A DNA stretch of 64,000 bases from a bacterium (GTDB lineage: Bacteria; Patescibacteriota; UBA1384; VFKW01), in contig JAUSIS010000013.1 in assembly GCA_030647355.1 (NCBI GenBank), positions 48,353-112,352 of the forward strand, read 5' to 3'. Below the pieces are notes generated by a model, which did no database searches, had not been told where the DNA came from, and saw only the letters and a program-made list of their open reading frames with translations. Both the position numbers and the translations under genes were made by a program. Positions 17,167 through 36,032 of the stretch are shown here, piece after piece (position 1 is the stretch's first letter; every line of letters begins with the position of its first letter).

Positions 17167-17311
17167 TTCACCTCAAATTCTATATCCATCTAGCATGCAA
17201 CCAAATAATATAATATCTCACATCAAATAACAAAGATAGCTTTGTGGAAATCTAAGTCTATTGCGAACTTATACCCTACGCGATATACTGGTATTAGATT
17301 TAGGAGGGGCG

Positions 17312-19120: not shown

Positions 19121-19128
19121 AGGAAAAT

Positions 19129-20325
19129 ATGCCAGCATTTCAATATACTGCACTAAATAAAGGAAAAAAAGAAACAGGTTCTATCGAGGCCGGCACCGAA
19201 GCCGAAGCCATTAAAATTCTTCGAGAAAAACACCTTCTTATCACCGATATTCACTCCCAAAAATCCGCTGGATTTTCCCTGCATCTCGCTCGATCCGTAC
19301 CAATGAAAGAAAAAATAATTTTTACCAGACAGTTATCTTTTATGATTAAAGCCGGTATGCCTGTCGTACAGGCACTAACTGCCTTAAAAGAACAAACCGA
19401 AAGCCCAATTCTCAAAACCGCTCTAGAGAAAATCATGCAAGAAGTAAAAGGCGGTGAACCTTTATCATCATCACTTGCCAAGTATCCTAAGATTTTTAAC
19501 CCAACCTATATTAGTGTGGTAGCAAGTGGTGAAAAAAGCGGAAAATTAGAAGAAGTCTTAAATAACCTTGCCGATCAACAAGAAAAAGATTTTGATCTTA
19601 TATCAAAAGTAAAAAGCGCCATGATCTATCCCCTAGTCATCCTTATTGCATTATTAGGAGTGATGTTCTTGATAGTCTTCTATATAATGCCTCAACTGGA
19701 ATCGGTCTTTAAAGATTTTGGCGGAGAGCTGCCTGCTTCAACCAAATTTCTCATGTCCCTAAGCAGTAATTTACGCAAATATTTCTATATTTACTTTTCA
19801 ATAATTATTCTCCTAATTGTTTTCTCTAAACAATTTACCAAGTACCCTCGAATTCGTCTCTGGGTAGATAAATTAAGAATTAGTCTGCCGATCTTAGGCA
19901 TGATGAACAAAAAAATATATATGGCGCGTTTCACTCATACCCTATCAATGCTCATCTCCGCGGGCCTCCCCGTGCTAGAAGCAATAAAAATATCAGGTGA
20001 AGTAGTAAATAATTCAGTCTACCAGAAATCATTCAATGATCTATTCAAAGGAGTCGAAGGAGGCGTTCCCTTCTCCGAATTGCTAAAAAAAGACAAAAAT
20101 TTCCCTCCCATGCTCGGTCATATGTGTAGCATTGGCGAGCAATCAGGCAATTTGGATTATGTGCTATCCCAAATTGCCAGCTTCTACGAAAAAGAGGTCG
20201 AAACAATCACCCGCAATCTTTCTACTCTTATTGAACCAATCCTAATGATACTTATGGGTATAGGAGTTGCCTTCGTCGTACTTTCTGTACTTGGACCGAT
20301 AAATAGTATCACAAATAATATTTAA
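19129..20325 (+). CDS. pilC: type IV pilus inner-membrane platform protein PilC/GspF
   Basis: Two T2SSF repeats and three TM helices. Tightly linked to pilB. Confidence 0.85.
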   Translation: MPAFQYTALNKGKKETGSIEAGTEAEAIKILREKHLLITDIHSQKSAGFSLHLARSVPMKEKIIFTRQLSFMIKAGMPVVQALTALKEQTESPILKTALEKIMQEVKGGEPLSSSLAKYPKIFNPTYISVVASGEKSGKLEEVLNNLADQQEKDFDLISKVKSAMIYPLVILIALLGVMFLIVFYIMPQLESVFKDFGGELPASTKFLMSLSSNLRKYFYIYFSIIILLIVFSKQFTKYPRIRLWVDKLRISLPILGMMNKKIYMARFTHTLSMLISAGLPVLEAIKISGEVVNNSVYQKSFNDLFKGVEGGVPFSELLKKDKNFPPMLGHMCSIGEQSGNLDYVLSQIASFYEKEVETITRNLSTLIEPILMILMGIGVAFVVLSVLGPINSITNNI

Positions 20326-20326
20326 T

Positions 20327-20713
20327 ATGATTAAAAAACACCAAAATGGATTCACAATTATGGAAGTGCTTATTGCCATCTTCGTCATTGGAACTGGTCT
20401 GCTTACTGTATACTCAATGTTCATTCTATCAAGCACAATTATTGGACGCTCACATAGGACAAATCAAGCATATTTGGTAGCCAATAGAGCAATCGAGCAG
20501 CTGCGCGCCCAACCATTCAGCTCTCTTGCTAATGGAGTTACGACCGAGACTGTTCCAGAACTGCCTAGTGCCTCGCTCACCAGAACGATCAGTTCCTATA
20601 ACTCCGACTCAAATCTGAAGCAAATAGACATCAGTGTTATCTGGCAGGACAAAGGGCAACCCAAGAATATTGACATAGTATCCCTCGCAACACCGCGGGG
20701 TATAAATAACTAA
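20327..20713 (+). CDS. prepilin-type (class III signal) minor pilin/pseudopilin
   Basis: N-terminus NGFTIMEVLIAIFVIG is a prepilin peptidase cleavage/methylation motif (G-F-T-x-x-E). Confidence 0.7.
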   Translation: MIKKHQNGFTIMEVLIAIFVIGTGLLTVYSMFILSSTIIGRSHRTNQAYLVANRAIEQLRAQPFSSLANGVTTETVPELPSASLTRTISSYNSDSNLKQIDISVIWQDKGQPKNIDIVSLATPRGINN

Positions 20714-20721
20714 GGACTTAA

Positions 20722-21285
20722 ATGTTAAAGAAAAAATCTGGTTTTACTCTAGTTGAAATATTAATAGTCATCGCCTTAACATCCATTCTCATGGGAGTCA
20801 TGTTTACAATTTACCAAAATAACAATCGTTCATATATTATAGTTACAGCGAAAAGTGATCTATATAGAGCAAACCTAAGAACTCTTGATAAAATCAGAGG
20901 AGATATCAAAAAATCAAGCCAACTCCTGGCCAACTACGACACCTACTCAACCAGTACAAACTCAATAATATTACAAATGCCACGGCTTGATGTAAGCCAA
21001 GCTCCCATTGTAAACACTTATAACTACGTTGTATATCGTCTCAACCCGAGCAACTCTCGCAATTTAGAACGAATTGAGATCATTGATTCTGTCACAACAA
21101 CCCAGACATTAAACCAAAAAGTATCCTCGATTAGTTTTACCCCAAAAGACAACCTCAGCAACAATATTACAGCTAATATAGAGAACACCTCGCAAATTGC
21201 CGTCGTCTTAGTGTTAAGCGACATCTCTAGAAACCTCGCCATCAACTCCCAGTTAAGTTCCAACGAAACCATGAGGAATAAATAA
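20722..21285 (+). CDS. prepilin-type minor pilin/pseudopilin
   Basis: N-terminus KKSGFTLVEILIVIAL is a prepilin motif. Confidence 0.7.
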   Translation: MLKKKSGFTLVEILIVIALTSILMGVMFTIYQNNNRSYIIVTAKSDLYRANLRTLDKIRGDIKKSSQLLANYDTYSTSTNSIILQMPRLDVSQAPIVNTYNYVVYRLNPSNSRNLERIEIIDSVTTTQTLNQKVSSISFTPKDNLSNNITANIENTSQIAVVLVLSDISRNLAINSQLSSNETMRNK

Positions 21286-23162
21286 TGACTGCCTTAAAAA
21301 TGATCAGACAGCAAAATCGCCAAAAAGGACAAGCCCTGCTGATGGCTATCACCATTCTCGGCATTATGTTAGTCGTCGCTACTGCCGTTCTTTCCTATAG
21401 CGAACAGAGTATCCGCGAAACCCGCCATAGTTACAGAACCACAATGGCTCTCTCTCTTGCCGAAGCCGGGATAGACTATGGTATAAGACAACTAAACCTG
21501 GACTCTGATTTTACCGGAACATCTACACCAATCCAGCTAGGCGCAGGCGAATTCGAGGTCAGCATCTCTGGTAGCGGAATTACCCGCGAGCTCACCTCGT
21601 CTGCTTACATACCGCAAAAAACGAGTTACCAAGTAAGAAAACGACTTCGCGCTGATATAAATGTCAATAATATTAATATCCACTTTCCATATGGAGTACA
21701 AGCCGGAGAAGGCGGAGTATATATGGCTCCCAATAGTAAAATAATCGGCGATATTTATTCAAACGGTTCGGTCGAGGGTACTACGGGCAACAGCATCACC
21801 GGAACAGCCATCGTTGCCAACGATAGCAATTTACTCACCCCCATAGAGTGGACAACCTATAATAATGACTTCACTTTTGGTCAAACTTCACCAGTAATTG
21901 ACATTGCTCAAAGCTTTACCTCGATAAGCACTGAAACAATAAACAAAATCTCGCTATATCTTAAGAAAGTGGGTAACCCATCAGATATAGCAATCCGTGT
22001 TTTCCCCGATCTTGGCAATCGCCCACTAAGATCTACTTTGGTAGCCAGCGGTACTTTGTCATCTGCTGGGATTACAACAACCTACAGCTGGGCAGAGACA
22101 TCTATTAATAATAATCTCCCCATGGTAGCTGGCTTAAAATACTGGATAGTTATTGATAGCGCATCGGATTCAAATAACTATTGGCAGATCGGCACGGATA
22201 GTAGCGATGGATATATTGGCAACTCTGGCATGACCAGCCCAAACTGGGACAAAAACCCAACGCCAACATGGAATGATCTAAATCAAGATTTTAATTTCCG
22301 AGTTTTTCTTGGCAACTCCGGAACCTACATTAAAAATGTTGATGTCACAGATGATGCTTATGCTCACCTTTTTAGCGATGGTGATGTTGGTAGAGACTTC
22401 TTCGGCTACCAATTCACCGGCGGATCATCGAATCACGATGTCGGCCGCGATGCCCACGCCAAAGAGCTCTCATTGTGTCATGTCAAAGGTGACGCTTATG
22501 CTGATAATAACCTATGCTGGGTAGACGGCAACCTCTATCCCGGCTCCGGAGAACCGGATCGTTCTCCCGCTAACTTCCCGATTACCGCTGCCAACATCGA
22601 AGATTTCAAAACAAATGCATCAGTAGCTACATATAGCGGCAATTATACCCCGCCGACTTCTCCGGCAAACCTCGGACCGATTCGTATCAATGGAGATCTT
22701 AATCTTATTAACAGCCAATACATTAATATCACAGGTACCGTTTACGTCACAGGAAAAATAAATTTTGCCAATAATAATGTGATCGCCCTAGATCCGGGTT
22801 ATGGCACATCGTCGGGAATTATTATCACTGACCAGCCAGCCACCATTGCCAACAATGTCACATTCCAGGGAAGCGGCCAGCCAAATACCTATGTCCTTGT
22901 AATCTCAACCAGTAATTCGACCGATCCGGCTAATCCAGCTTTGGATATAAGACAGAACGTCAATGCAGCCATTCTTTTTGCCCCAACTGGACTTGTATAT
23001 CTGGCAAATAATGTTGAGATTAAAGAGACAACCGGATATAAATTATATCTTAACAACAATGCCAGGGTAACCTACGAATTGGGTCTGGAAAATGTCCTAT
23101 TTTCCACCGGTCCAGCCGGCGGCTGGCGGATGAAACCCGGCACTTGGCGAGAAATAACATGA
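21285..23162 (+). CDS. large PilX-N-like pilus-associated protein (possible tip/adhesin)
   Basis: N-terminal QKGQALLMAITILGIMLVVATAVL resembles the PilX_N pseudopilin-like anchor. 625 aa, Thr/Asn/Gly-rich beta-type extracellular body. Confidence 0.5.
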   Translation: MTALKMIRQQNRQKGQALLMAITILGIMLVVATAVLSYSEQSIRETRHSYRTTMALSLAEAGIDYGIRQLNLDSDFTGTSTPIQLGAGEFEVSISGSGITRELTSSAYIPQKTSYQVRKRLRADINVNNINIHFPYGVQAGEGGVYMAPNSKIIGDIYSNGSVEGTTGNSITGTAIVANDSNLLTPIEWTTYNNDFTFGQTSPVIDIAQSFTSISTETINKISLYLKKVGNPSDIAIRVFPDLGNRPLRSTLVASGTLSSAGITTTYSWAETSINNNLPMVAGLKYWIVIDSASDSNNYWQIGTDSSDGYIGNSGMTSPNWDKNPTPTWNDLNQDFNFRVFLGNSGTYIKNVDVTDDAYAHLFSDGDVGRDFFGYQFTGGSSNHDVGRDAHAKELSLCHVKGDAYADNNLCWVDGNLYPGSGEPDRSPANFPITAANIEDFKTNASVATYSGNYTPPTSPANLGPIRINGDLNLINSQYINITGTVYVTGKINFANNNVIALDPGYGTSSGIIITDQPATIANNVTFQGSGQPNTYVLVISTSNSTDPANPALDIRQNVNAAILFAPTGLVYLANNVEIKETTGYKLYLNNNARVTYELGLENVLFSTGPAGGWRMKPGTWREIT

Positions 23163-23228
23163 CCGATCAATTACTTGATACTCAAGGCATGATACTATAT
23201 ACTAAGTACAGATACAGGAGGAGGGGCT

Positions 23229-24419
23229 TTGTTTTCTAATTTATTCAATAATCCTGCTTTAACTTTCGGCCTTGATATAGGTTACGATTCCTTGAAAGTC
23301 GTCCAGCTCAAAAAAACTGCTGGCGGTATTTGTTTGAAAGGTTTCAATTCTATTCCCCTTCCCTTCAACTCATTTACAAAAGACGGTATCACCAATCCCG
23401 AGCAAATAACCAGAGCCCTGAAGCAAGCTATGGATGAAGCCGAACCTCAAAGTATAAAATCAAAATATGCTATTACCTCACTACAGGAATCCATCGTTTT
23501 TTCTAAGATTGTCAATTTTCCGAAAGTCAAACAAAGCGATCTCGAAAATAGCATCAGGTATGAAATTGGTGAGATATTCCCTGTCCCAGTCGAAGAACTT
23601 TACTATGATTGGCAATTAATCAATGAACATGCCCAGGGTAATATGAAAGCTCCAGACATTACTAAGCAACCGGATGTAGAAAAACAAGAAGAGAAAGAAA
23701 AAGACAAAAAGTCAGAGAATAACAAAGACCAAAAAGAACCTAATCCAACTAATGAAGAGGAAATGGAACCGCAATTAGAAATTTTGGTCGCCGGAACACC
23801 CAAAAATATAGTTGATCAGTATCAAAAGATTTTAAATGAATGCGGCATCACAATATCAGCTCTAGAGACCAAATCAATCTCGTCAGCCAGAGCTACCTTA
23901 GATCCTTTTGAAAAGAAAGGCATATTGATTGTTGATATAGGAGCCGAAAGCACTAATCTCTCTATTTTTGATGAAGGCATCATTCGTTTCACTGGTACGG
24001 TAAAATGTGGCGGCAATGTCACCACGCGAGCTCTTTCGGGACTTGCCACTCTACCCGAAGATAGTAAAGAAAAACATACACTTATCCAAAATATAGATAC
24101 TAACCTAAATAACGAATTTGCCAAGAAAAAAGACCTGATAATCAAAAGTCTTCTGCCAATAACCCAAGAAATTAACCAAGCGATTAAATTTTACCAGAAC
24201 CGAGTCGGTAAAGTGGATAAATTAAACAGAATTACTATAACCGGCGGAGGTGCCAATATTCCCCATATTGCCGATATCATCGAAGAGCATACTGGTTTTA
24301 CCTGTGGAATAGCCAATCCTTTCACCAATATCAAACAGCCAAAAGATCAGTCATTAACTGCCTTCAGTCCATATACTGTAGCAATCGGTTGCGCTTTACG
24401 AAGCTTTATGGAGAACTAA
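23229..24419 (+). CDS. pilM: type IV pilus assembly protein PilM (actin-like ATPase fold)
   Basis: FGLDIGYDSLKVV N-terminus and C-terminal ITGGGANIP are actin-fold motifs. An acidic K/E-rich low-complexity insertion of about 45 aa lies in the middle. Confidence 0.8.
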   Translation: MFSNLFNNPALTFGLDIGYDSLKVVQLKKTAGGICLKGFNSIPLPFNSFTKDGITNPEQITRALKQAMDEAEPQSIKSKYAITSLQESIVFSKIVNFPKVKQSDLENSIRYEIGEIFPVPVEELYYDWQLINEHAQGNMKAPDITKQPDVEKQEEKEKDKKSENNKDQKEPNPTNEEEMEPQLEILVAGTPKNIVDQYQKILNECGITISALETKSISSARATLDPFEKKGILIVDIGAESTNLSIFDEGIIRFTGTVKCGGNVTTRALSGLATLPEDSKEKHTLIQNIDTNLNNEFAKKKDLIIKSLLPITQEINQAIKFYQNRVGKVDKLNRITITGGGANIPHIADIIEEHTGFTCGIANPFTNIKQPKDQSLTAFSPYTVAIGCALRSFMEN

Positions 24420-24976
24420 TGCTAATTACTATCAATCTTCTGCCGCCAGAGCAAAGAAATAAAAAGACAGAGATTAAAAAAGGTGAAAAAATCTTTACCC
24501 TCAGTTTTACTATACTGGCGTGCACCGTAGCACTCTCAATTCTCTTATTTACATACAATACAACGATTAAACAGCAGCTTAACACGATTAACAGCCAAAT
24601 TTCCAGTGAAAATAGCAGACTCAATGATTACAAAGGCCTCCGTACTTCGCTAAATAACATGTCAAATACACTCATTTATATTGATACCATTGAGAAAAAG
24701 AGCATCAATTTAGAGAGTTTCCTGACACAATTCAGCAGTATAATACCTGAAAAAGCCCAAGTTACTTCGTTAGAGATCAGCGCCCTCCCCTCCCCTACCA
24801 TAGATATTTCCGGGAAAGCCGAATCTCGTACTGAAGTAATAAAATTATTTGAAAAAATGAAAACATCGCCTTTCTTCTCCGAACCGGAAATTAAAAGCCT
24901 GGACAAATCTGTAGATAAGGACGTAGCTAGTTTCCAATTTTCTATTTCTGCGAAAATTCTTCTGGAGAAATTATGA
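24419..24976 (+). CDS. pilN: type IV pilus assembly protein PilN
   Basis: MLITINLLPPEQRNKK (INLLP motif) followed by one TM helix. ggag RBS 8 nt upstream. ATG 24389 is the upstream in-frame alternative. Confidence 0.7.
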   Translation: MLITINLLPPEQRNKKTEIKKGEKIFTLSFTILACTVALSILLFTYNTTIKQQLNTINSQISSENSRLNDYKGLRTSLNNMSNTLIYIDTIEKKSINLESFLTQFSSIIPEKAQVTSLEISALPSPTIDISGKAESRTEVIKLFEKMKTSPFFSEPEIKSLDKSVDKDVASFQFSISAKILLEKL

Positions 24977-25674
24977 CTAGTTCAAAAAAATCAACAATTA
25001 TAATATTAACCCTAACCAGTCTAATAATACTGGCTGCCATTTACTTTTTCATTTTACCTACCTGGCAGAATTACACCAAAACCACAAAAGAAATTGCCCA
25101 AAAAGACACCGAGCTTACTCAAATTAAAAGGGAAGTTGTAACTTACTCGAAGCTAGCCAAGCAGAAAGATCAAATAGCGCTTTATTCACAAAAAACCAGT
25201 AATCTGGTACCTGCAGAACCAGAACTGGAAACCTTTATGGTCGAACTAGAAGCGCTAATCGCGCAAAGTAAAATACCTCAAGCAGAGTTCCATTTAGCTA
25301 GTCTAACCGCCGGAACCACAACCACTAACAATCCATCAGTCCTGCAGGATACCAAAAATTACCAGATCATTATAACAGGGACTAGCTCACTAGCCAACAT
25401 TATCAATTTTACTAACCAACTCAAAACCTTATCCCGCTTAACCGAAACGACCGCCCTTGATATAAATACTACAGACAAAAATGATTCTATTGGTTTTTCT
25501 TTAACTGGCAATATCTTTTCCGAGGAAAAAAAGCCATCCGGTAAACTTCTAAATCCTTCCAAGATTCTTAGCGAGGCGATCGCCAAGATAACTGACTATC
25601 AAACATATGGCCAAAATATCGAAGTACAAAAAGAAGAAGGATTCGGCAGACCCAATCCCTTCACCTCATACTAG
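24973..25674 (+). CDS. pilO: PilO-like pilus assembly protein
   Basis: Single N-terminal TM helix, then a coiled coil, then a periplasmic domain. Positional equivalent of pilO after pilMN. Overlaps pilN by 4 nt. Confidence 0.55.
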   Translation: MTSSKKSTIIILTLTSLIILAAIYFFILPTWQNYTKTTKEIAQKDTELTQIKREVVTYSKLAKQKDQIALYSQKTSNLVPAEPELETFMVELEALIAQSKIPQAEFHLASLTAGTTTTNNPSVLQDTKNYQIIITGTSSLANIINFTNQLKTLSRLTETTALDINTTDKNDSIGFSLTGNIFSEEKKPSGKLLNPSKILSEAIAKITDYQTYGQNIEVQKEEGFGRPNPFTSY

Positions 25675-25957
25675 CTATTTAACTATATCAAGCAAACGAA
25701 AAAACCACCCGGAACCTGTTCAGATACTATTCTAGGAGCGAATCGGGACAGTTTAAGCCGAAAACTGTTATAGCAATACTGTCTTGCCTGTTCCACCACA
25801 GGCGTGGGTCATTGCGAGGAGCGTAAGCGACGTGGCAATCTATTTTTCCCATAAAAGATTGCTTCGCGCCATCAACTCGCAATGACTAAAAATAGAAGCC
25901 ATCGAAAACTCCTAAAATCGTCATTCCGGGCTTGATCCGGAATTTATTATATCTATA

Positions 25958-25990
25958 AAGAAAAAACCGCCTACATGGCGGTTTTTTCTA
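25958..25990 (-). terminator. rho-independent terminator (overlaps the stop of the receiver gene)
   Basis: aaaaaaccgcc-tacat-ggcggtttttt. A-run/T-run symmetric, so potentially bidirectional. Confidence 0.5.
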
Positions 25991-26360
25991 AAGCAGCTTT
26001 TATCTTTTCTATTACCTCGCCCGGCATCGTCTCCGATTTCACTATATAATCATCGGCTCCGCTGGAAAGACCCTTCGCCTTATCAATATCTTGAATTAAT
26101 GCCGTGAGCAGCAAGACCGGTATATCCTTTGTTTCCTCATCGCCCTTTAGCATTTTTAACACATCTAACCCGTTTATTTTTGGCATCATAATGTCGAGCA
26201 AAATAACATTTGGATGTTCAGTCTTCGCCTTCTCTATCGCTTCCTCTCCATCTTTCGCCGAATCAACAGTAAATCCCTCCATTTTCAATCTTTCAACATA
26301 CATCTCTCGAAGTGTTAAGTCATCATCTACAATTAAAATTGATTTACCTGAATCCGCCAT
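25971..26360 (-). CDS. single-domain response regulator (CheY-like receiver)
   Basis: ILIVDDD...LLDIMMPKINGLDVLKMLK...LLLTAL are the receiver Asp pocket, phospho-Asp, Thr and Lys motifs. Confidence 0.8.
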   Translation of the reverse strand: MADSGKSILIVDDDLTLREMYVERLKMEGFTVDSAKDGEEAIEKAKTEHPNVILLDIMMPKINGLDVLKMLKGDEETKDIPVLLLTALIQDIDKAKGLSSGADDYIVKSETMPGEVIEKIKAALEKTAM

Positions 26361-26448
26361 GGTTCCTCCATATATTTTTTCGTTACAAACTGATATATAT
26401 ACCCATAAATCAGCCCGAACTTCTTATTACAGTCTCAATGTATCACTT

Positions 26449-26853
26449 TTAAAAATTATGTGCAACACTGGCCGCATCAAGAGCCACTTTCACCTTCTGC
26501 ACAACCTCTTTAGGCATTGTTTCTGATTTTATAATAAAATCATCCGCTCCCGCTTCCAAACCTACTGTACGATCCCTGCCCTGACTCAAAGCCGTCAAGA
26601 TAAAAATGGGAATAGTTCTCGTCTCTTTCTGGTGTCGCAAATATTTCAGCACTTCAATCCCATTCATCTCAGGCATCATAATGTCAAGCAGAATTAGATC
26701 GGGCTTGAATCGCGGAATATCCTCTAGCGCAACTTTCCCGTTTTCCGCCCGCATTACATCAAAATCCTCTGCCTTCAGGCGGATGGCATACATTTCAGCC
26801 AGCGTCTCGTCGTCCTCTACCAACATGACTCTTTTGTGTGCTTGCGGCCTCAT
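26449..26853 (-). CDS. single-domain response regulator (CheY-like receiver)
   Basis: VMLVEDDETL...LLDIMMPEMNGIEVL...ILTAL. Paralogue of the preceding gene. Confidence 0.8.
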   Translation of the reverse strand: MRPQAHKRVMLVEDDETLAEMYAIRLKAEDFDVMRAENGKVALEDIPRFKPDLILLDIMMPEMNGIEVLKYLRHQKETRTIPIFILTALSQGRDRTVGLEAGADDFIIKSETMPKEVVQKVKVALDAASVAHNF

Positions 26854-26866
26854 AATTTCTCCTTTT

Positions 26867-29203
26867 TTATTTTACTTGCTTAAGATAACTTTCCATCGGA
26901 TTCTTCACATCAATCTTATCAGCATCACTTGTCGTCGGCTTGGTTAGAACCGCCCCTTCCCCCTCAAAAGGATCGGCTGGTTTTTGGGAAACTATCGGCA
27001 AAGTGAATTTGAAAATTGCACCCTTACCTCCGCCAGCTGGTGGACTCTCAATCCATATTTTACCACTATGCAGCTCCACCAGTTTCTTGCTGATATAAAG
27101 CCCCAAGCCCGACCCCTGAAATTCGTTTTTTTCGCGATTGAGCTGGCTGAATTTTTTAAATAGTTTATCGGCATCCTCTTGCTTTATCCCCACACCCGTA
27201 TCCGATACTGTAAATTCGAGCGACCTGCCGTCAACCTTCGCCTCAATAGTCACTCCGCCTTTTTCCGTGAACTTGATCGCATTGCCTGCCAAATTAACTA
27301 AAACTTCGCGAATCCTATTTATGTCTATCCAAGTTTGCGGCAATTTATGCTCCGGCTTCTCAAATTTCAAATAAATCTTCTTCGCATTTGATTTTACGCT
27401 CAATTCATCAATAACGCTCTGAACCAATTCCTCCGGACCTATTTCTCCGTACATCAAATGAATTCTCCCCTGCTCGATTCTGGAGACATTTAAAAGATCG
27501 AGTATCAAAACCGCCAACCGTTTGCTGGATGCATAAACTCTATCCAAATATTCTTTGGCCGTAGCGTCAACTTTGCCCATTCCTTCATCCAAAATCATGC
27601 TTAAATAGCCCTGTATTGCCGCCAAAGGCGTATTCATCTCATGACTGGCAACCGAGATAAATTCGTCTTTCATCTGATCCAAATCCTTCAAGTAATCGTT
27701 CGCCTTCTTTAAATTTTCATACGCTATCGCTCTCTGGACAGCCAAGCTTACTTCGTTCGAAATGGCTGCCATCATACTGATCGCTTCGGTGGCAATATCC
27801 TCGATTGGATGTTTCAATCCATAAATGGCCACTCCGAATCTCTCATCCTTAGCTGATAACGGGATGGCAATCAGTCCTTTTATATCACTTTTTGTTTGAA
27901 GTTCCCTAGCTAGAGTCTTATCAAGCGGCGGCGACACAAAATCCGATAGGTTATTCCCCTTCTGTTCCTTTTGACTATGGTACGCCATCATAAGTAAGTT
28001 TTCACGGTTTTTCAGAGGAATGGCAGTCGAACGCACCACTTCCTTCCACTTATCCAAAAGCCCATCAGATAAATTAGTCTCGGACAGGGCATACCCCTTC
28101 ATCTTCTCACTCTCCTGGTCAACCAACGCCACTACCACTCCCATACATTCATCGATCTCCTTAGGAATGGTATTGATAATTTGCTGAATCATCGGCTTCA
28201 TCTCATTATTATCGAGGACTATATCAGAAAATTTCTGCAAAGTTGATAGATTTTTATTTCGCTCGTCAACTTCCTTGAGCGCCCTCTCCCTCTCCTTTGC
28301 CAGCGTCTCCATCTCCTCCCGCTGCTTGATTTCTTTTCTAACACTTCTTATCAACGAAAAACCACCAAATACCGCCAATAACCAGACAATACTCTTAAGC
28401 ATTCCCTCACCAACCGAATTAGATAAAAATACTTCGATCAAAAGACCAAGTGAAAGTAAGATTACTATAGTCTCGGTTGTAACTACTTTAATATCAAACA
28501 AACCTGTTTTTATTATACCGTAAGCTATAAATCCAACGAAAAATATTATTGAATAATTACCAATACGATAGAGCGACTGGTTATCTAGAATAATTGGAAT
28601 AGTGGTATTAAATAAGACCTCAAGAAGAACGAATATCCCAAAACCCAATAATAAGTATTTTAATTGAAGCTTTTTTATACCATAAGTATTAAAATAATTT
28701 CTCACGAAGATTATTAAAGAGGTTAGTAGTAAAATTAGTGAAAAAGGTAGAAATATTTGAAAATAAGCATTACTGGTGATTACATCAAAACCCCATTGAG
28801 TGTGCTTAATCCCCGTTGCAAAAAAAGAAGTAAAAACCGTAACTATAAATAAAATCGTGGCACAAATCAAAATGAATAAATTAAGAAGATTCACATAACG
28901 CGAAAGCTTAATATGAAATGGATAAACTAAAGAAAAGAAGTATAAAGTTATACACATCCCAACAACCGAACCAAAAGTAATTCTACTTAACAATAGCGTT
29001 ACCCACTCGTTTGTATTTACAAAAAACTCAGAAACATAGGCAGAAGAAACTATCAAACATGAAAATAAAGCAAATCCAATAAAATATTTATTAGCAATAT
29101 CTTTGGGATCTTTTAAATATACTACTAATCCTAAAAAGATACATGTGATACAAATAATTAATACACCAATTGATTCCATGTTCAGTAGTAATCCGGAAAT
29201 CAT
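26867..29203 (-). CDS. sensor histidine kinase with a multi-TM N-terminal sensor region
   Basis: About 8 N-terminal TM helices, then a coiled coil and a GAF/PAS-like region. HisKA H-box SHEMNTPLAAIQGY. HATPase_c N, G1 (DTGVGI) and G2 (GSGLGL) boxes. Confidence 0.8.
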   Translation of the reverse strand: MISGLLLNMESIGVLIICITCIFLGLVVYLKDPKDIANKYFIGFALFSCLIVSSAYVSEFFVNTNEWVTLLLSRITFGSVVGMCITLYFFSLVYPFHIKLSRYVNLLNLFILICATILFIVTVFTSFFATGIKHTQWGFDVITSNAYFQIFLPFSLILLLTSLIIFVRNYFNTYGIKKLQLKYLLLGFGIFVLLEVLFNTTIPIILDNQSLYRIGNYSIIFFVGFIAYGIIKTGLFDIKVVTTETIVILLSLGLLIEVFLSNSVGEGMLKSIVWLLAVFGGFSLIRSVRKEIKQREEMETLAKERERALKEVDERNKNLSTLQKFSDIVLDNNEMKPMIQQIINTIPKEIDECMGVVVALVDQESEKMKGYALSETNLSDGLLDKWKEVVRSTAIPLKNRENLLMMAYHSQKEQKGNNLSDFVSPPLDKTLARELQTKSDIKGLIAIPLSAKDERFGVAIYGLKHPIEDIATEAISMMAAISNEVSLAVQRAIAYENLKKANDYLKDLDQMKDEFISVASHEMNTPLAAIQGYLSMILDEGMGKVDATAKEYLDRVYASSKRLAVLILDLLNVSRIEQGRIHLMYGEIGPEELVQSVIDELSVKSNAKKIYLKFEKPEHKLPQTWIDINRIREVLVNLAGNAIKFTEKGGVTIEAKVDGRSLEFTVSDTGVGIKQEDADKLFKKFSQLNREKNEFQGSGLGLYISKKLVELHSGKIWIESPPAGGGKGAIFKFTLPIVSQKPADPFEGEGAVLTKPTTSDADKIDVKNPMESYLKQVK

Positions 29204-29225
29204 TTTCCCCTCGCTTTATTGATTT

Positions 29226-30809
29226 TTAAACAATCAATCTTGGTTTTGTTCTGTTGCTATCTTCTGCAAAAGGGCCATCGCGAAATGGATATATTTTTAC
29301 TATAGGGAGACATGTCGCCAGGTCCTCAATACATGCCTGATTAAAATCCGTATTGACTTTCTTTAAGTGATTCAAGATTGCTAAAACATAGTGCTCTGAT
29401 AGTGTTAATAGTTTTTCATTTTCAATTTTAGCATTTTTCTTTAATTCCAAGTAGATTACAAATTGCGAGTTACCATGTTCGTCTTCTGTTTTGGAAAGTT
29501 TGTACCCATTAAATTGTTCAGCACTTAATACAATCTTTTCGATTTGACTTGGATAAACATTGGCACTCGCAATTGATAGCGCTTGTTGTCTGGAATAAAC
29601 ATATACAAAAGGTAATCTCCAGACTTTATAAGACTTTGGTGTATTGTTTTCAGTCAATAGTTTCTGAATATCATAGCCATTATCATCTAACGCTTTAAGC
29701 ATTTTATTATAAGGAACGATACCGCCAACATCTTCTATATCATACCTAATCAATGGCACACCAGAATAACTGGATAATACTATGTGGTCTTCGTTCAGCA
29801 TCTCAATATAATAAGCGGATGGGTTATACTGCACAATACTTGGTGCATAATCTTCACCAAACAATTGTTTACAAAATTTCTTGTCTTCGCTTGCAATCTT
29901 GCGAATAATATTGGTCAGCAAAGACCCAAACCCTATTCCACCAGCGTCAGCAGTACCATAAACATCCAGCAAGGTATTTATTGAGTCTGAATTTGGTTTT
30001 TTCTGGTCGGTTAACTGGCACATTACTGCACTTTTCCAATTATCTGATACCGCCTCTCCTCCTGTTTGTATTTTTACACTTAATTTTTCCCAATTAATTC
30101 CATTATTCTTACCCTCATTAATAACTAACTTAATAAAAGAAGGATATCCAGCTATTACGATCTGATCATAATCTTCGGCAAGTTTTTTAATACAATATAA
30201 TACATGATCGAGATTTGCCCCAGGAGTTGCTATTGTTAATTGTAACTTTGGATCATCGAGTGATACTTGTTTCATTAACCATGTATTTAACTCTCCCGCT
30301 ATCCATGGTCCCAAAGCATAAGTAACAATCCATAAAGTGGATTTTTTATCAATCTCCCAACAATTCTGATATACAACTCTAACATATTTAGGAAGTATCC
30401 AGTCTTGATTTTTATCTCTAAACCAAAAAACTGGTTCACCTGTGGTGCCAGATGTTGTTGCAAAATTATACATTTCCTGAATGGGAGCAGACAATAATTG
30501 CTCTCTTCGATAACGATTAAAATATTGCTTCTTATTTGTGATAGGTACATATTCCTTGAAATTCTCAATAGTTTTTATTTTTGTATGGTCTTTTAAACCA
30601 TTTTTCTTTAAAAAATCTTTATAGGCCGGCACCTTTTCGGCTGCCTCGTGAAAACTAATTAGTAGTTTCTTTTTACCTTGTTTTTCCCAAAATGAGGCGG
30701 GCATTGTAGATAAAAACCACATTGCTCTTTTGGGATTCGACATAAAAAACTTTTGCATCAAATTACCGATTTTCATTTTCTCCTTGTTATAATTATCCCC
30801 ATGGGTCAA
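29226..30809 (-). CDS. adenylate-forming enzyme, GH3/PaaK-like (ANL superfamily)
   Basis: Motifs FKEYVPITNKKQYF and FATTSGTTGEPVFWF (an SSGTTGxP-type phosphate-binding loop). At 527 aa the length fits bacterial GH3 acyl-acid amido synthetases. The assignment needs HMM confirmation. Confidence 0.5.
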   Translation of the reverse strand: MTHGDNYNKEKMKIGNLMQKFFMSNPKRAMWFLSTMPASFWEKQGKKKLLISFHEAAEKVPAYKDFLKKNGLKDHTKIKTIENFKEYVPITNKKQYFNRYRREQLLSAPIQEMYNFATTSGTTGEPVFWFRDKNQDWILPKYVRVVYQNCWEIDKKSTLWIVTYALGPWIAGELNTWLMKQVSLDDPKLQLTIATPGANLDHVLYCIKKLAEDYDQIVIAGYPSFIKLVINEGKNNGINWEKLSVKIQTGGEAVSDNWKSAVMCQLTDQKKPNSDSINTLLDVYGTADAGGIGFGSLLTNIIRKIASEDKKFCKQLFGEDYAPSIVQYNPSAYYIEMLNEDHIVLSSYSGVPLIRYDIEDVGGIVPYNKMLKALDDNGYDIQKLLTENNTPKSYKVWRLPFVYVYSRQQALSIASANVYPSQIEKIVLSAEQFNGYKLSKTEDEHGNSQFVIYLELKKNAKIENEKLLTLSEHYVLAILNHLKKVNTDFNQACIEDLATCLPIVKIYPFRDGPFAEDSNRTKPRLIV

Positions 30810-31584
30810 TTAGTATTGAATCTGGGGTAAGAGGTATTGGAACGCCTTCAATTAATTTAATAATTGCTCCTACGATAATTGAAGAAGTAATACTAGCGCT
30901 TACCCCAAGCTGTGGCACAAATCCATTATCTTTTATTATCTGTTGGTATGTTTTTACAAAATTTAATTTATTCTTAAAAGGATCTGGCATCCTTTTAATG
31001 CTATTCATGATCAACATAGCAAAGCATTCATCACCATACACTTTTCCTCCTACTATATCTTCAATCGTTGCTGATTGAGGTGAAAATACTAATGCAAAAC
31101 CACCAAACCCGAATGTAAAAGGAAATAATACATATTTATTTTGCTTACGAGCTTCGGCATTAATAATATAGATCACCTCATTGGGGTCAGCCATATTTAC
31201 AACAATATCACTTTTTTTTATCAACATCTCCACCTCTTTTTGATGTTTAACGAATTTCGGATAAACTTCAACTTTACAGTGAGGATTGATTGTAAGGATT
31301 TTTTTCTTTATAGCTTTGGCTTTATTTACTCCAACATCTTTAATATCAAAAGCTTGACGATTTAAATTACTTAATTCAACTTTATCCCCATCGCAAAGGA
31401 TAAAATTTTTAAAACCTTTTCTTGCAGCTGAAATAGCTATTTGACTACCCAGACCGCAACCAATTAAAAGAATTTTAGTTTTTTTTATTTTTTTTTGTGT
31501 ATCGTTAGAAATAAGACCAAAATTACGTCTCAAAAACTCTTCCATAAACCGATCCGGATGTTTAGGTATTTTCTTTGTTATCAT
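30793..31584 (-). CDS. ThiF/MoeB/HesA-family E1-like adenylyltransferase
   Basis: Rossmann motif ILLIGCGLGSQIA and the conserved NLNRQ motif. Overlaps the downstream adenylating-enzyme gene by 17 nt. Confidence 0.75.
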   Translation of the reverse strand: MITKKIPKHPDRFMEEFLRRNFGLISNDTQKKIKKTKILLIGCGLGSQIAISAARKGFKNFILCDGDKVELSNLNRQAFDIKDVGVNKAKAIKKKILTINPHCKVEVYPKFVKHQKEVEMLIKKSDIVVNMADPNEVIYIINAEARKQNKYVLFPFTFGFGGFALVFSPQSATIEDIVGGKVYGDECFAMLIMNSIKRMPDPFKNKLNFVKTYQQIIKDNGFVPQLGVSASITSSIIVGAIIKLIEGVPIPLTPDSILIDPWG

Positions 31585-31594
31585 AAAATCCCAT

Positions 31595-31861
31595 TCAATT
31601 CTTATATTTAAAAAATAAAACAGCCATGATAATTACTCCTGGAATATTTATAGATTCTAGGGCGATAATCGGCCATTCTTTGATTACTATTCCATAATTT
31701 AACCATGCCAATTCGGTTATAACGATTCCTAGAATTAATATAATAGAAAAATCCTTAGCACTTTTCGTTTTCCATATTTTCCACACTTGTGAATAAATGC
31801 CTAAAGTAATGGTAAGGCTGGCTACAAAAGTTACCAGTCGGCTTATATCAACATAACTCAT
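31595..31861 (-). CDS. SemiSWEET / PQ-loop family small membrane transporter (3 TM)
   Basis: 88 aa with 3 TM helices. The motif YSQVWKIWKTKSAKDFS (a PQ-loop-like SQ...KTKS...S pattern) and the later NYG resemble MtN3/SemiSWEET. Confidence 0.55.
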   Translation of the reverse strand: MSYVDISRLVTFVASLTITLGIYSQVWKIWKTKSAKDFSIILILGIVITELAWLNYGIVIKEWPIIALESINIPGVIIMAVLFFKYKN

Positions 31862-32236
31862 ATGAAATAATCCCCGTTATTAATATAAATATATCATTAA
31901 TTATGATCGGATACAATATAATTAAATCATAACTATATCTGAAACCATAAATGTCCTCCTTTATTATTCTAATACAGTATAGCCGCCTACGAAAAACTTC
32001 GGTACTTATCAAAAAAATCAAGATCGCCCTGCCCTACTCTCATTTAACCACAATCGCCAAAAAACCCATATAGTCACATATACAAGGAGAGGTAATCCAA
32101 CTTATCCTAATTCTTCACCACCTGAATAGAGTTCAATATCTTTTTCCCAACCCAACCTATCACGCTCTTCTCACACTCTTCCAACCACAACCACTTCGAC
32201 ACATTCCCCCAACCCCAACCCGATATTACCGACCCA

Positions 32237-32271
32237 CCGTAACCGCTTCTGCGCTATAGCGCATAACTAGT
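32237..32271. repeat. 35-bp direct repeat, copy 1 (3' of the PaaX-like gene)
   Basis: ccgtaaccgcttctgcgctatagcgcataactagt, about 86% identical to 32934-32969. Contains the palindrome gcgctatagcgc. Confidence 0.6.
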
Positions 32272-32325
32272 TACGCTTACAGGAGGTACAATATTTAAAA
32301 AAAATGAAGCTGACTCTGAAATATA

Positions 32326-32913
32326 CTATTCACCTTGGTTTAAATTAAAATATTTTACTAATTTATCCGCGCCCGGCAAAAAATCTGTCTTCAAATACGC
32401 GACAAATGAAGAAATTCCACAAGATTGAGTTAAAATCGCAATCTCTTCTTTACATTCGTAAGGAATAACCCATAAACTATCCTGAACCTGAAAAAACCCA
32501 AAATTAATCAATTTCCGCCTGAAGTAATCTCTTTCCTTCTTTTTACTTTCTGGAATATCATAGCTCACCAGATGCCAAATCCCATCCCAATATTCGAATT
32601 TACTAATCACAAGCTCATCAATTTTAAATCTTTCCAATAATTCCAATCCCTTCTCTGTCAATTTGACTTTCTCGCCAGCTAAATAGATAATCCCCTTTTC
32701 TTCCAGCAATTTCAAATTTTTCTTATATCTATATTTTTGCTGACGATTTTGCAACATCAAAACCTGAGCCACATTCGGTGCCACAAATGCCGAGGCCAAG
32801 ATCAACCCTGTCTCCACCATCTTCAAAATTTCCTTTTGCTTTTTCGATATTCTCATAGTTAAATTATAACAAAATACAACTATATTCGTACTACCCAAAT
32901 TTATGCTACCCAA
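32326..32913 (-). CDS. putative transcriptional regulator, wHTH + Cas2/VapD-like C-terminal fold (PaaX-like)
   Basis: Central KKNLKLLEEKGIIYLAGEKVKLTEKGLELLE looks like a winged helix. The C-terminus WHLVSYDIPESKKKERDYFRRKLINFGFFQVQDSLWVIPY resembles the Cas2/PaaX_C beta-alpha-beta pattern. The real start may be the internal M at about 32856. Confidence 0.4.
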   Translation of the reverse strand: MGSINLGSTNIVVFCYNLTMRISKKQKEILKMVETGLILASAFVAPNVAQVLMLQNRQQKYRYKKNLKLLEEKGIIYLAGEKVKLTEKGLELLERFKIDELVISKFEYWDGIWHLVSYDIPESKKKERDYFRRKLINFGFFQVQDSLWVIPYECKEEIAILTQSCGISSFVAYLKTDFLPGADKLVKYFNLNQGE

Positions 32914-32933
32914 CTAAATACCTGATCAACCTA

Positions 32934-32969
32934 TCGTAACCACCTCTGCGCTATAGCGTATAACTAGTG
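32934..32969. repeat. 35-bp direct repeat, copy 2 (5' of the PaaX-like gene)
   Basis: tcgtaaccacctctgcgctatagcgtataactagtg. Confidence 0.6.
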
Positions 32970-33188
32970 ACATATTAATGTGGCAAAAAGCGACATTTCT
33001 ATTTTACATTGACAGAACCGCCATGGAGCCACCAACGAATCTATGACAGTCCGTTGTGGTCCCAAATGGTAAGATAAGACTAGCTGATCAATAGCACGAT
33101 CTAATTCAGGCGATGTGCACGCTCGCTATTGAGGAACTTGCAGACAAGAATGTGCTGCCAGAACCAATAAAGAGAGCTATTATAGCAA

Positions 33189-33237
33189 GAGGGGTCGGCA
33201 ATGCCTAGGGAAACGCCGACCCCCTTTTATTTTTTAT
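33189..33237 (+). terminator. rho-independent terminator (plus-strand orientation), overlapping the Nudix gene stop
   Basis: ggggtcggc-aatgcctagggaaac-gccgacccc followed by ttttattttttat. Confidence 0.5.
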
Positions 33238-33670
33238 ACAGATTGATGAGAAAATTATTAGCTGTTTTAAGTATCTGGGCACTTGAATTGTGTGATATTT
33301 TCTTACTTGCCTGATCAAAATCAAGCCATAAGTAATCAACGATTTCTTCCGGCCTCATGATCTTAGCATCGGTATTAAGTACTTTACCTAGATAATATGT
33401 AACAGTCTTATCGAGAATCTTTCCATCCTTTTCAAATATGTATTTATCCGATAACCCTTGATCGGATATAATTTCAAACTCTGTAATACCGGTTTCTTCA
33501 TATATTTCCCGTTTAATTGTCTCAAATATAGTCTCATCTTTTTCCGGATGCCCCTTGGGAAATGCCCAGTGGCCTGTTCTATGATGGATTAATAGATATA
33601 AATAACGGCCATCTTCTTTATAAAATGGTATGAGTCCATAAGATTGATCTTTAATTATTTCTTTTCCCAT
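33227..33670 (-). CDS. NUDIX hydrolase
   Basis: Nudix box GHWAFPKGHPEKDETIFETIKREIYEETGI (GX5EX7REUXEEXGU). Confidence 0.85.
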   Translation of the reverse strand: MGKEIIKDQSYGLIPFYKEDGRYLYLLIHHRTGHWAFPKGHPEKDETIFETIKREIYEETGITEFEIISDQGLSDKYIFEKDGKILDKTVTYYLGKVLNTDAKIMRPEEIVDYLWLDFDQASKKISHNSSAQILKTANNFLINLYKK

Positions 33671-34628: not shown

Positions 34629-36032
34629 GTGACCTGCACCCATTATAGCGGCAACAGAAGGCCAATAATAATCCTCTTTAGAAAATTCCCTACTGCAGTA
34701 TTTTATTATTATGCTACAATTAAACGGATGGAAACAAACAAACACACTCTAAAATCCCAAATAAATATCGAACGCATCGGCTGGCTTATCGGTCTGGCGC
34801 TTTTACTGTACCTACCCAACCTGTACCCGGCGCAATTCTCCAAAATGACTGAACTTGCCTACACGGGATTAATACTTTCAACTGCCCTGCTTTATTATTA
34901 CCTCGCCTACAATCTTCTTCGCATAACAAAAAGTTGCTACGCCAAAAATATCGGCGACATCCTGTTCCTAAATTCGCTCCTCTTCCTTGCAATCCAAACA
35001 AAATCCTATATCGCGCTCATCCTCATAATTCCTATCGCCGGTTCGTTATTGATCCTAAACAGAATCAACGGTTTGATCGTCGCCGCCTCTGCCATAATCC
35101 TGGTTGGGCTGGAAATTTTTGTTGAAAATAATAACAACATTACACTCTACTTCGACCCGGTCTATGTTCTGATTGTTTTGGCAGTTATTATCACTTTCTA
35201 TATGAGAATACTTGCCCAAAAAGCGCATTATGAACACCTCGTGAGACAGGAGGAAGAAAGTAAATTAGCCGAAATCAACATAAAATTATCCAACTTAGAA
35301 CACCAAGGCAAAGAATTCACGACTTTGGCAGCCAGACAAATCTCAACACCGCTTGCCACTATCCAAAGCTTCGTCCAAACACTTTCAAGCGAGAAAGACG
35401 GACATCTAAACGACAAACAAAAAGTATTTATCAAAGAGACTGCCAATTACATCGAAAAAATGCATGGTCTGATATCCGAACTGCTTTATATAACAAAGGT
35501 CGAATTCAGCCCACCCCCCGAGCTTCGACCAATGGACATTTTAGACACCACCAAAGAGGTCATCAAGAAATTTGAACCCTATCTTAAAGAAAAAAACACC
35601 GAGATAAAACTAAAATATCCTAACAATGACATGCCTAACATAAAAGCCGATAAGAATTACCTGCCGGAAATACTCAATAGATTAATTGACAACGCTATAA
35701 AATATTCACCCGATAAATCACCGATAGAAATCGTCCTGCAAATCGTTCACAAAGACAATAAACCGTACCTAAGTCTAGACATCTCCGATCGTGGACTTGG
35801 CATTCCCAATGAAGAGCAAAAATATTTGTTTCACAAATTCTTTCGCGGTAGCAATATAATTGATACTGAAATACCCGGCAACGGACTAAGTTTGTATGTA
35901 GTAAAGCTCTTAGCCGACAAACAAAACTGTAAAATTGATTTTAAATCAAAAACTGATGAAGGGACATCGTTTCTATTAGATTTCCCGCTGGAAAAAAGTG
36001 ACGCAAAAAAAGGCGGCTCCAGCCGCCAATAA
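34629..36032 (+). CDS. membrane sensor histidine kinase
   Basis: About 6 N-terminal TM helices. HisKA H-box region, then HATPase_c N and G boxes (DRGLGIP, GNGLSLYVVK). The start codon is uncertain; the alternative is M at about 34728. Confidence 0.75.
   Translation: MTCTHYSGNRRPIIILFRKFPTAVFYYYATIKRMETNKHTLKSQINIERIGWLIGLALLLYLPNLYPAQFSKMTELAYTGLILSTALLYYYLAYNLLRITKSCYAKNIGDILFLNSLLFLAIQTKSYIALILIIPIAGSLLILNRINGLIVAASAIILVGLEIFVENNNNITLYFDPVYVLIVLAVIITFYMRILAQKAHYEHLVRQEEESKLAEINIKLSNLEHQGKEFTTLAARQISTPLATIQSFVQTLSSEKDGHLNDKQKVFIKETANYIEKMHGLISELLYITKVEFSPPPELRPMDILDTTKEVIKKFEPYLKEKNTEIKLKYPNNDMPNIKADKNYLPEILNRLIDNAIKYSPDKSPIEIVLQIVHKDNKPYLSLDISDRGLGIPNEEQKYLFHKFFRGSNIIDTEIPGNGLSLYVVKLLADKQNCKIDFKSKTDEGTSFLLDFPLEKSDAKKGGSSRQ

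Follow-up and report, generated by a model that had tools for sequence, protein, structure and literature searches.

Gene content and organization of the locus

We analysed a 64,000-nucleotide stretch of DNA (hereafter, the window) from a bacterium of the Patescibacteriota (GTDB lineage UBA1384; VFKW01), corresponding to positions 48,353 to 112,352 of contig JAUSIS010000013.1 (assembly GCA_030647355.1), and focus here on six genes which encode, from the upstream to the downstream end, a SemiSWEET-type transporter, a ThiF-like adenylating enzyme, a ligase of the PaaK family, a sensor histidine kinase and two CheY-like receivers, RR_A and RR_B (Table 1). An open reading frame (ORF) check with translation found all six on the minus strand of 25971-31861, exactly where the initial annotation had placed them. 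The proposal that they constitute a single operon is plausible, because the genes share a strand, follow each other with gaps of 10, 16, 22, 13 and 88 nt and are interrupted by no convincing internal terminator, and we are highly confident that all six belong to one conserved functional module. One structural detail required correction, namely a 17-nt overlap between the ThiF and ligase genes, which is an artefact of an upstream in-frame TTG codon. The ATG at 30776 lies behind an AAGGAG ribosome-binding site (start-site sequence AAGGAGaaaATG; on the minus strand, ...CCATGGGGATAA (ThiF stop) TTATAAC AAGGAG AAA ATG), and the public annotation of the identical ligase protein (P0001) is 516 aa long; this sequence context and this length place the ligase start at 30776, 16 nt past the ThiF stop.

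Table 1. Genes and sequence features of the locus in the window.
Feature	Position	Strand	Evidence and remarks
SemiSWEET-type transporter with three transmembrane (TM) segments, 88 aa	31595..31861	-	Pfam MtN3_slv
Short stand-alone ThiF-like adenylating enzyme, 263 aa	30793..31584	-	Pfam ThiF, E=1.5e-36
PaaK-family adenylate-forming ligase, 516 aa	29226..30776	-	Profile, fold and ANL motifs; corrected start ATG 30776
Sensor histidine kinase, 778 aa (HisKA_7TM, GAF-like middle region, HisKA, HATPase_c)	26867..29203	-	Pfam
RR_A, stand-alone CheY-like receiver, 134 aa	26449..26853	-	Response_reg, E=2.6e-25, sole domain
RR_B, stand-alone CheY-like receiver, 129 aa	25971..26360	-	Response_reg, E=1e-26, sole domain
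PaaX-like protein (winged helix and Cas2-like PaaX_M)	32326..32913	-	PaaX_M, E=1.4e-21; operon membership uncertain
Terminator-like GC hairpin in the convergent pilO/RR_B spacer	25923..25943		Likely operon end; weak

Two adenylating enzymes

Pfam alone could not place the ligase, its only match being a sub-threshold one to GH3 (19.6 bits against a gathering score of 23.6, over 60 residues), so that its placement required a search of the PDB with the family profile together with a predicted structure. NCBIfam gave weak PaaK/FlxY matches, the best of them to FlxY, the partner ligase of FlxA in flexirubin synthesis, and the score against the PaaK equivalog TIGR02155 was 42.6 bits, with a cut-off of 646. 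The profile of the ligase family retrieved PaaK structures from the PDB (4r1l, E=3e-21), and the AlphaFold model (pLDDT 90.4) had PaaK/BT_0428 as its top Foldseek match, followed by HCL, then by AjiA1/NatL2/ClxA, and then by the McbA amide synthetase and GH3, the GH3 structures reaching a TMq of about 0.6, behind PaaK. These fold matches include PaaK-family and related ANL enzymes whose ester- or amide-forming reactions do not involve CoA (NatL2, AjiA1, McbA and GH3). The motifs SSG(S/T)TG, YGT(A/S)D and RY..D.G as well as the C-terminal Lys are conserved in an alignment of 30 homologues. Profile, fold and motifs agree that the protein, initially called at 527 aa, is an adenylate-forming enzyme with the ANL core and confirm its assignment to the PaaK family; GH3, which had been named alongside PaaK, is only a distant fold relative.

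The ThiF-like enzyme has invariant ATP-site residues and no CxxC pairs in the alignment. The best solved match of its AlphaFold model (pLDDT 90.7) is PDB entry 9egb, entitled 'AclA from Tenacibaculum discolor in complex with substrate' (TMq 0.85, rmsd (root-mean-square deviation) 2.2; phmmer E=7e-25), and its identity of ~34% to AclA-like genes indicates homology, not orthology. It belongs to a small clade of short stand-alone ThiFs, apart from the lineage that resembles TrzS, which is the mycobacterial protein Rv1355c (PMC12856293). Whereas the ThiF of locus L019 scores 298 bits over positions 5-347 of the Rv1355c/TrzS model NF005901 (cut-off 476), the window protein reaches 68.6 bits over the Rossmann part only. 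Moreover, its median score is 119 bits against AclA-like ThiFs versus 57 bits against the TrzS-like ThiFs of Patescibacteria, so that two ThiF lineages have been combined with the same ligase and kinase families. By analogy with characterized relatives, we propose that the window ThiF might be an ATP-dependent cyclase acting on the carboxylate of a small molecule. Two of its close homologues, P0127 and P0134 (L085, 2393-3463), are extended at the N-terminus by ~95 aa, in which three TM helices are predicted; this suggests that the enzyme works at the membrane.

Conservation of the cassette across Patescibacteria

A scan of one genome per GTDB species yielded 204 loci with a relative of the ligase, the best 80 of which were analysed, with the neighbouring genes labelled by tblastn and by hidden Markov models built from the loci; unless stated otherwise, the counts below refer to the 59 loci with at least 3 kb of upstream and at least 5 kb of downstream flank. 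All ligase relatives come from lineages of the Patescibacteria/candidate phyla radiation (CPR), and labels such as 'uncultured Gammaproteobacteria' on some Third Party Annotation assemblies were not used as evidence of wider spread. A ThiF gene lies on the ligase strand in 56 of the 59 loci, within two genes of the ligase in 55, a HisKA_7TM kinase gene in 55, and both partners together in 52. Thus, the ligase-ThiF-kinase arrangement, for which the initial annotation could offer no counterpart, is syntenic in dozens of genomes and far beyond chance, so that the lack of synteny, which that annotation had named as a ground for rejection, clearly does not apply. A receiver gene is found nearby in 36 loci.

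Most of these cassettes are more elaborate than that of the window. In the modal order, a deaminating enzyme is followed by the ligase, a ThiF with an N-terminal extension of ~105 aa, a nitroreductase-like gene, an optional alpha/beta hydrolase and the seven-transmembrane (7TM) kinase, with the receiver located downstream or divergently upstream. The long ThiF matches positions 5-347 of NF005901 (1.3e-88), and the gene that follows it matches positions 377-718 of the same model (2.8e-56) as well as a model of Acg-family FMN oxidoreductases; such a nitroreductase/Acg-type gene is present in 37 loci and is sometimes fused to ThiF. The deaminating enzymes encoded upstream of the ligase are of three non-homologous types: an ELFV dehydrogenase, most similar to the tryptophan dehydrogenase ScyB (8e-82), or an aromatic ammonia-lyase, most similar to the tyrosine ammonia-lyase FlxA (9e-181), in 32 of the 59 loci, and a class I/II aminotransferase, divergent, in others. 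Together with the FlxY match, these enzymes suggest that, in most lineages, the ligase activates an acid derived from an aromatic amino acid. The window cassette has no deaminating enzyme, flavin oxidase or TrzS-type N-terminal extension of ThiF, and we regard it as a reduced, lineage-specific version of the CPR-wide cassette.

The operon most closely related to that of the window is found in locus L002, where a divergent PaaX gene precedes genes for SemiSWEET, ThiF, ligase, kinase and two receivers; a gene for a 23S rRNA intervening-sequence protein (PF05635; 11439-11786) lies between the kinase and receiver genes of this locus. L085 has the order SemiSWEET, ThiF, ligase, GAF kinase, receiver; L088 has ThiF, ligase, 7TM kinase, receiver; and in L086 the order is methyltransferase, ligase, SemiSWEET, ThiF, kinase, with two receiver genes and pilO further on, past several unrelated genes. 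Three loci with ligase homologues of 37-45% identity (L003, L006 and L008) have one or two S-adenosylmethionine-dependent methyltransferase genes preceding that of the ligase, and none of the genes around it was labelled as ThiF; in these loci, the carboxylate may be masked by methylation in place of cyclization.

The most telling variation concerns the ligase itself. In L090/L091 and L123, an N-acyl amino acid synthase (NAS) gene occupies the place of the ligase gene, ahead of the genes for a short ThiF, a 7TM kinase and a receiver. For instance, L091, from a complete Candidatus Nomurabacteria genome, encodes an NAS resembling FeeM and autoinducer synthases (Pfam FeeM, 1.2e-15) and a methyltransferase before the short ThiF, which is followed by a 7TM-GAF kinase and a receiver, whereas the order in L123 is NAS, ThiF, kinase, receiver. 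Among 128 fetched loci, NAS is present in 34 and the ligase in 95; both occur in one only (L009), where they belong to two tandem modules with one kinase each. This non-orthologous replacement is our main argument that the ligase takes over the task of the NAS, i.e. the production of an N-acyl amino acid, and we suggest that it would do so by direct amide formation from the acyl-adenylate, by analogy with GH3, McbA and the PaaK-like NatL2/AjiA1, which form amide or ester bonds. Directly upstream of the NAS-methyltransferase-ThiF-7TM kinase-receiver genes of L090/L091 (1685-5703 of CP060223.1) lie six genes in tandem, whose products, stand-alone proteins of ~220 aa, are homologues of the 7TM domain of the kinase.

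Transporter, sensor kinase and receivers

The SemiSWEET protein is about 90 aa long, with three TM segments and an MtN3/PQ-loop repeat, and scores 33 bits against MtN3_slv (gathering score 23.7) and 48.5 bits against the NCBIfam model SemiSWEET_2 (cut-off 80). Homologues are encoded in the cassettes of L002 (83% identity), L086 (61%), L085 (39%), L096 and L125, and the gene order varies across cassettes, with SemiSWEET placed between ligase and ThiF in L086. The gene is thus conserved within the sub-clade of the window; in the wider family, it occurs in one of the 59 loci.

The kinase had been described as a multi-TM histidine kinase, which its HisKA_7TM, HisKA and HATPase_c domains bear out, with the H, N, G1, F and G2 boxes readable in the translation; the description has to be amended by an additional GAF-like middle domain. 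This part of the protein (residues about 291-500) can be aligned with the L085 kinase, in which Pfam detects GAF_2 at 324-480, and because of this homology, we consider the sensor to be of the 7TM-GAF type. RR_A and RR_B are 50% identical, and the acidic pocket, Thr and Lys of receivers could be read by eye in both translations. Response_reg is the sole Pfam domain in either, in agreement with the original view of two stand-alone receivers devoid of DNA-binding output. Such an architecture is common in the cassettes, since 73 of the 92 receiver ORFs in the ligase loci and in metagenome loci collected with ThiF are stand-alone proteins of at most 160 aa. An orphan histidine kinase gene, encoding a PilS-like 6TM domain and adjoined by no response regulator gene, is located at 34629-36032 on the plus strand. 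As this brings the number of kinases within 10 kb to two, equal to that of the receivers, RR_A and RR_B may have different kinases as partners.

Flanking genes and sequence features

Upstream of the SemiSWEET gene, the same strand carries genes for the PaaX_M-type protein and a NUDIX protein (Pfam). The central domain of the PaaX-like protein also matches Cas2 models, PaaX_M being Cas2-like, but the protein is not part of a CRISPR system; the public gene call is 164 aa long and the longest ORF 195 aa. We tentatively consider this protein to be a transcriptional regulator of the operon. A PaaX_M/PaaX_C gene adjoins the SemiSWEET gene divergently in L002, but the gene is not conserved elsewhere among the related loci, being found in two or three of them only.

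The spacer between the PaaX-like and SemiSWEET genes (31862-32325) is unusually long, at 464 nt, and contains a G/T-rich run at about 32100-32240 of the minus strand (ggttggggttggggg...ggttgggttggg). An Rfam scan of 25500-33300, which includes this spacer, revealed no riboswitch or small RNA, with one match at chance level. Consensus promoter and terminator scans of the region performed no better than on shuffled sequence and are, therefore, uninformative on transcription units; likewise, the hairpin beyond RR_B is a weak candidate, because terminator-like sites are not enriched over shuffled sequence. The GC content is 0.32-0.34 across 28001-32000, a stretch that spans the 5' half of the kinase gene and the ligase, ThiF and SemiSWEET genes but leaves the receiver genes outside, compared with 0.39-0.43 in most flanking 2-kb windows, which may reflect a different origin or the composition of membrane-protein genes.

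A proposed pathway and its alternatives

We propose that the operon encodes the synthesis of a small molecule together with its receptor. The ligase would adenylate an acid with ATP and join it to the amino group of an amino acid, yielding an N-acyl amino acid; the acid might be supplied by the adjacent dehydrogenase, ammonia-lyase or aminotransferase in most relatives and, in the window, would presumably be imported or drawn from the cell pool. The AclA-like ThiF would then adenylate the free carboxylate, and an internal nucleophile would close the ring to give a neutral small molecule, possibly a lactam, a lactone or an oxazolone, with the lactam and the oxazolone suggested by analogy with AclA, TcdA and OxzB (PMC12596934). 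The SemiSWEET might move the precursor in or the product out across the membrane, and the 7TM-GAF kinase, as the putative receptor of the product, would detect it and phosphorylate both CheY-like receivers, which may exert their effect by contacting other proteins, possibly those of the neighbouring type IV pilus machinery. Taken as a whole, from the synthesis of an N-acyl amino acid through cyclization and transport to sensing by the kinase, this mechanism appears to us evenly poised between right and wrong. The initial annotation had supposed that the operon synthesizes or activates a small conjugated metabolite or signal which the kinase senses; comparative genomics points in the same direction, as evidence from context rather than proof.

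Several considerations weigh against this pathway. The analysis establishes which genes are present, their families and folds, the conserved synteny and the alternative partners; each chemical step, the direction of transport, the binding of the product by the kinase and the output are what we infer. The ligase could be an ordinary CoA ligase, an aryl-acyl-CoA ligand being hinted at by the PaaX-like gene nearby. Sugars are what the SemiSWEET family is known for, and a kinase gene may share a transcript with enzyme genes for other reasons. The role of AclA as the cyclase of the N-acyl-cyclolysine (ACL) pathway is itself one that we infer from its name, the title of the PDB entry and the gene context, and the window cassette lacks the flavin oxidase, the deaminating enzyme and the ThiF extension that anchor the oxazolone analogy elsewhere. 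Finally, only 8 of the 79 species loci have pilus genes at a distance of up to 10 kb, a modest number that is not clearly above expectation.

Among the alternatives, an unlikely one is that the same enzymes make a metabolite directed at the host or at competitors, an antimicrobial or a membrane lipid of the kind of the acyl-tyrosines and oxazolones, and that the kinase senses an unrelated cue governing its production or self-protection, the product not being its ligand. The argument from chemistry is the same as for the proposed signal; moreover, known N-acyl tyrosine derivatives are antimicrobial, the role of oxazolones is described as unresolved (PMC12856293), and Patescibacteria live attached to host cells. 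However, transcriptional control of production is not evident, because the receivers have no DNA-binding output, the AclA-like ThiFs, the closest relatives of the window enzyme, pair with a dedicated receptor of the LuxR family, and the linkage of the kinase in 55 of the 59 loci, from very divergent lineages, suggests co-evolution of receptor and ligand. This alternative and that of protein modification, discussed below, are harder to exclude than the remaining ones.

A catabolic or salvage function, whereby a PaaK-like aryl-acid CoA ligase would act on imported aromatic acids under PaaX repression and two-component sensing of the substrate, strikes us as improbable. The nearest relatives of the ligase, by sequence and fold, are phenylacetate-CoA ligases, a PaaX_M protein is encoded upstream both in the window and in L002, and the dehydrogenases, lyases and aminotransferases of the related loci could be read as catabolic. 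Yet this function leaves without a role the almost invariably linked ThiF and the nitroreductase partner, no paa or oxidoreductase genes follow downstream, and the biosynthetic NAS replaces the ligase in L090/L091 and L123; in addition, PaaX is confined to two or three loci, and the score against the PaaK equivalog is far below the cut-off.

Rather more improbable is post-translational modification, in which the ligase and ThiF would attach or cyclize a group on a protein, be it the kinase, a pilin or some other component of the envelope. Enzymes similar to LuxE and PaaK are capable of protein acylation, two ThiF homologues carry the three-TM anchor described above, an apparent ThiF-7TM fusion is encoded in L036 and a pilus operon adjoins the cassette. 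The fusion was set aside as a possible assembly error, the kinase being fragmented in that locus; furthermore, the closest characterized relatives of the ThiF use small molecules, and no conserved target ORF is evident.

The ThiF-like protein had been labelled an E1, a term that is not supported in the protein-activating sense, and we hold both the activation of a ubiquitin-like or sulfur carrier and a Cap2-type anti-phage module to be very improbable. The protein does belong to the ThiF family, and its Rossmann part matches ThiF/MoeB/UbaA models and the E1 half of the E1-E2 models of CBASS anti-phage systems. However, none of its equivalog scores comes near the respective cut-off, it has no zinc-type CxxC motif, and an E2, JAB, CD-NTase or rhodanese partner is missing. 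No GG-terminated carrier was found among all ORFs of at least 20 aa in 25600-32400, as had been noted for ThiS/MoaD-like carriers, nor among the 422 ORFs of 45-130 aa in 82 related loci, none of which ends in GG, which largely refutes the carrier reading. An anti-phage module was rejected because the PADLOC matches of ThiF to E1-E2 models are confined to the E1 Rossmann segment; for the remaining five proteins, PADLOC gave no E2, CD-NTase or effector match and only weak domain-level ones. Least probable of all is a pathway for peptides that are made by the ribosome and then modified post-translationally (RiPPs), in which ThiF would modify a precursor peptide in the manner of MccB, PaaA or GrcB: ThiF enzymes are common in RiPP pathways (PMC12596934), and the window ThiF matches MccB and PaaA in sequence and fold, but much more weakly than it matches AclA, the protein starts at the Rossmann core with no N-terminal RiPP recognition element or peptide-clamp domain, and clustering of the ORFs of related loci revealed no conserved family of small ORFs.

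Possible output through type IV pili and significance

With regard to the output of the proposed signalling pathway, a complete type IV pilus operon (17261-25674, plus strand) converges on the RR_B gene, encoding PilB, PilC, two N_methyl pilins, a 625-aa protein with no Pfam match, PilM, PilN and PilO. A pilus operon or pilMNO also adjoins the cassette in L002, L003, L008 and L086, and receiver-PilB fusions directly follow it in L011 and L076, one a Saccharibacteria and the other a Paceibacterota locus. Given the low number of loci with pilus genes mentioned above, an output through pili remains a lead rather than a finding. At its most far-reaching, our interpretation would make the cassette the first autoinducer-type signalling system of Patescibacteria, with an ANL-ligase route to a cyclized N-acyl amino acid, ACL-like in the window and oxazolone-like in most lineages, perceived by a dedicated 7TM-GAF kinase, from which CheY-like receivers, joined in some lineages by receiver-PilB fusions, would relay the signal to type IV pili and thereby to host-cell attachment; we consider this possible but doubtful. 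If it is true, oxazolone-type metabolites would gain the receptor that is missing from the studies of mycobacteria and proteobacteria.

Patescibacteria account for a large share of bacterial diversity and are reduced epibionts; to our knowledge, there is hardly any information on the ways in which they perceive one another or their hosts. The cassette, which is present in at least 204 species-level genomes, links the synthesis of a small molecule with a kinase in the membrane and hence offers a concrete candidate for such communication that can be put to the test. It is also relevant to a question left open in the oxazolone literature, namely, what purpose the cyclized acyl-amino acids made by ThiF enzymes serve (PMC12856293; de Rond et al.), in that a receptor-like kinase is co-encoded here. 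Finally, the modularity of the cassette, with a ligase or an NAS, an AclA-like cyclase or a TrzS-like one plus oxidase, and a kinase or a LuxR-type receptor, provides a useful rule for mining further signalling systems.

Comparison with known systems

Pairs of an autoinducer synthase and a polytopic histidine-kinase receptor, such as LuxM/LuxN, CqsA/CqsS, LqsA/LqsS and PhcB/PhcS, resemble the window operon in function only: a gene for a signal-producing enzyme adjoins that for a multi-TM kinase, which would bind a hydrophobic small molecule, with phosphotransfer to a receiver, but the receivers of the window have no DNA-binding output. With PaaK and with NatL2, AjiA1 and ClxA, its best PDB matches, the ligase shares the fold and the adenylation motifs. 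It is, however, about 80 residues longer than PaaK and PaaK-like ligases, only 14-16% identical to them and far below the family cut-offs, and neither paaABCDE-type neighbours nor a paa operon is present at the window locus.

The oxazolone pathways are among the closest known systems. TrzS, TyzB/TyzC and OxzB have been shown experimentally to convert N-acyl aromatic amino acids to oxazolones (PMC12856293, PMC10404671, bioRxiv 10.1101/2020.06.11.147165), whereby the ThiF part of the synthetases cyclizes with ATP and the flavin part desaturates with O2; the similarity of oxazolones to signalling molecules has been remarked upon, while their physiological role is stated to be unresolved (PMC12856293). 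OxzAB of Pseudoalteromonas rubra, TyzACB and TrzAS of Mycobacterium tuberculosis thus employ a ThiF-like ATP-dependent cyclase on an N-acyl aromatic amino acid, and, in most cassettes of Patescibacteria, the extended ThiF and its nitroreductase/Acg-type partner match the TrzS model, either split or fused. By contrast, the ThiF of the window is of another lineage and has no flavin oxidase partner, an ANL ligase stands in place of the acyl-CoA-dependent NAS, and no sensor kinase is linked to the known pathways.

Another of the closest known systems is the ACL system. ACLs have been reported as a widespread signalling family of Bacteroidota (Linares-Otoya et al., Nature 2025, as presented in the review PMC13419125). 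Our metagenome scan found AclA-like genes nearly always flanked by genes for a convergent GerE/LuxR-family regulator and a FeeM-type NAS, with such a regulator and one or two NAS genes accompanying the AclA-like ThiF in at least 27 loci (within L122-L174; for instance, L139, 8001-10976), and this cassette is presumably the published ACL signalling locus. Both systems feature a short stand-alone ThiF, AclA being the closest solved relative of the window enzyme, whose gene adjoins those for an acylating enzyme and a dedicated receptor, and both would follow the same proposed logic, in which an amino acid is acylated and cyclized via an ATP-activated carboxylate, and the product is sensed. They differ in that the ACL loci encode a FeeM-type NAS and a cytoplasmic LuxR/GerE regulator, neither of which is present in the window, where a PaaK-family ligase, the 7TM-GAF kinase, two CheY-like receivers and the SemiSWEET are encoded instead.

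Full-text literature searches retrieved no paper in which a histidine kinase or Patescibacteria are connected with the chemistry of ThiF, oxazolones or ACLs, and no description of the use of a PaaK-family ligase, the SemiSWEET in the sub-clade of the window, the Patescibacteria-wide occurrence of the cassette or the HisKA_7TM kinase and CheY-like receivers to which it is almost universally coupled. The initial impression that the arrangement is not a described system accordingly holds, within the literature searched, for the coupling of a PaaK-type ligase to a 7TM kinase in Patescibacteria, but not for the underlying logic, since the combination of an acylating enzyme with a ThiF-like cyclase, with or without a flavin oxidase, is already known from OxzAB, TyzACB, TrzAS and the ACL system.

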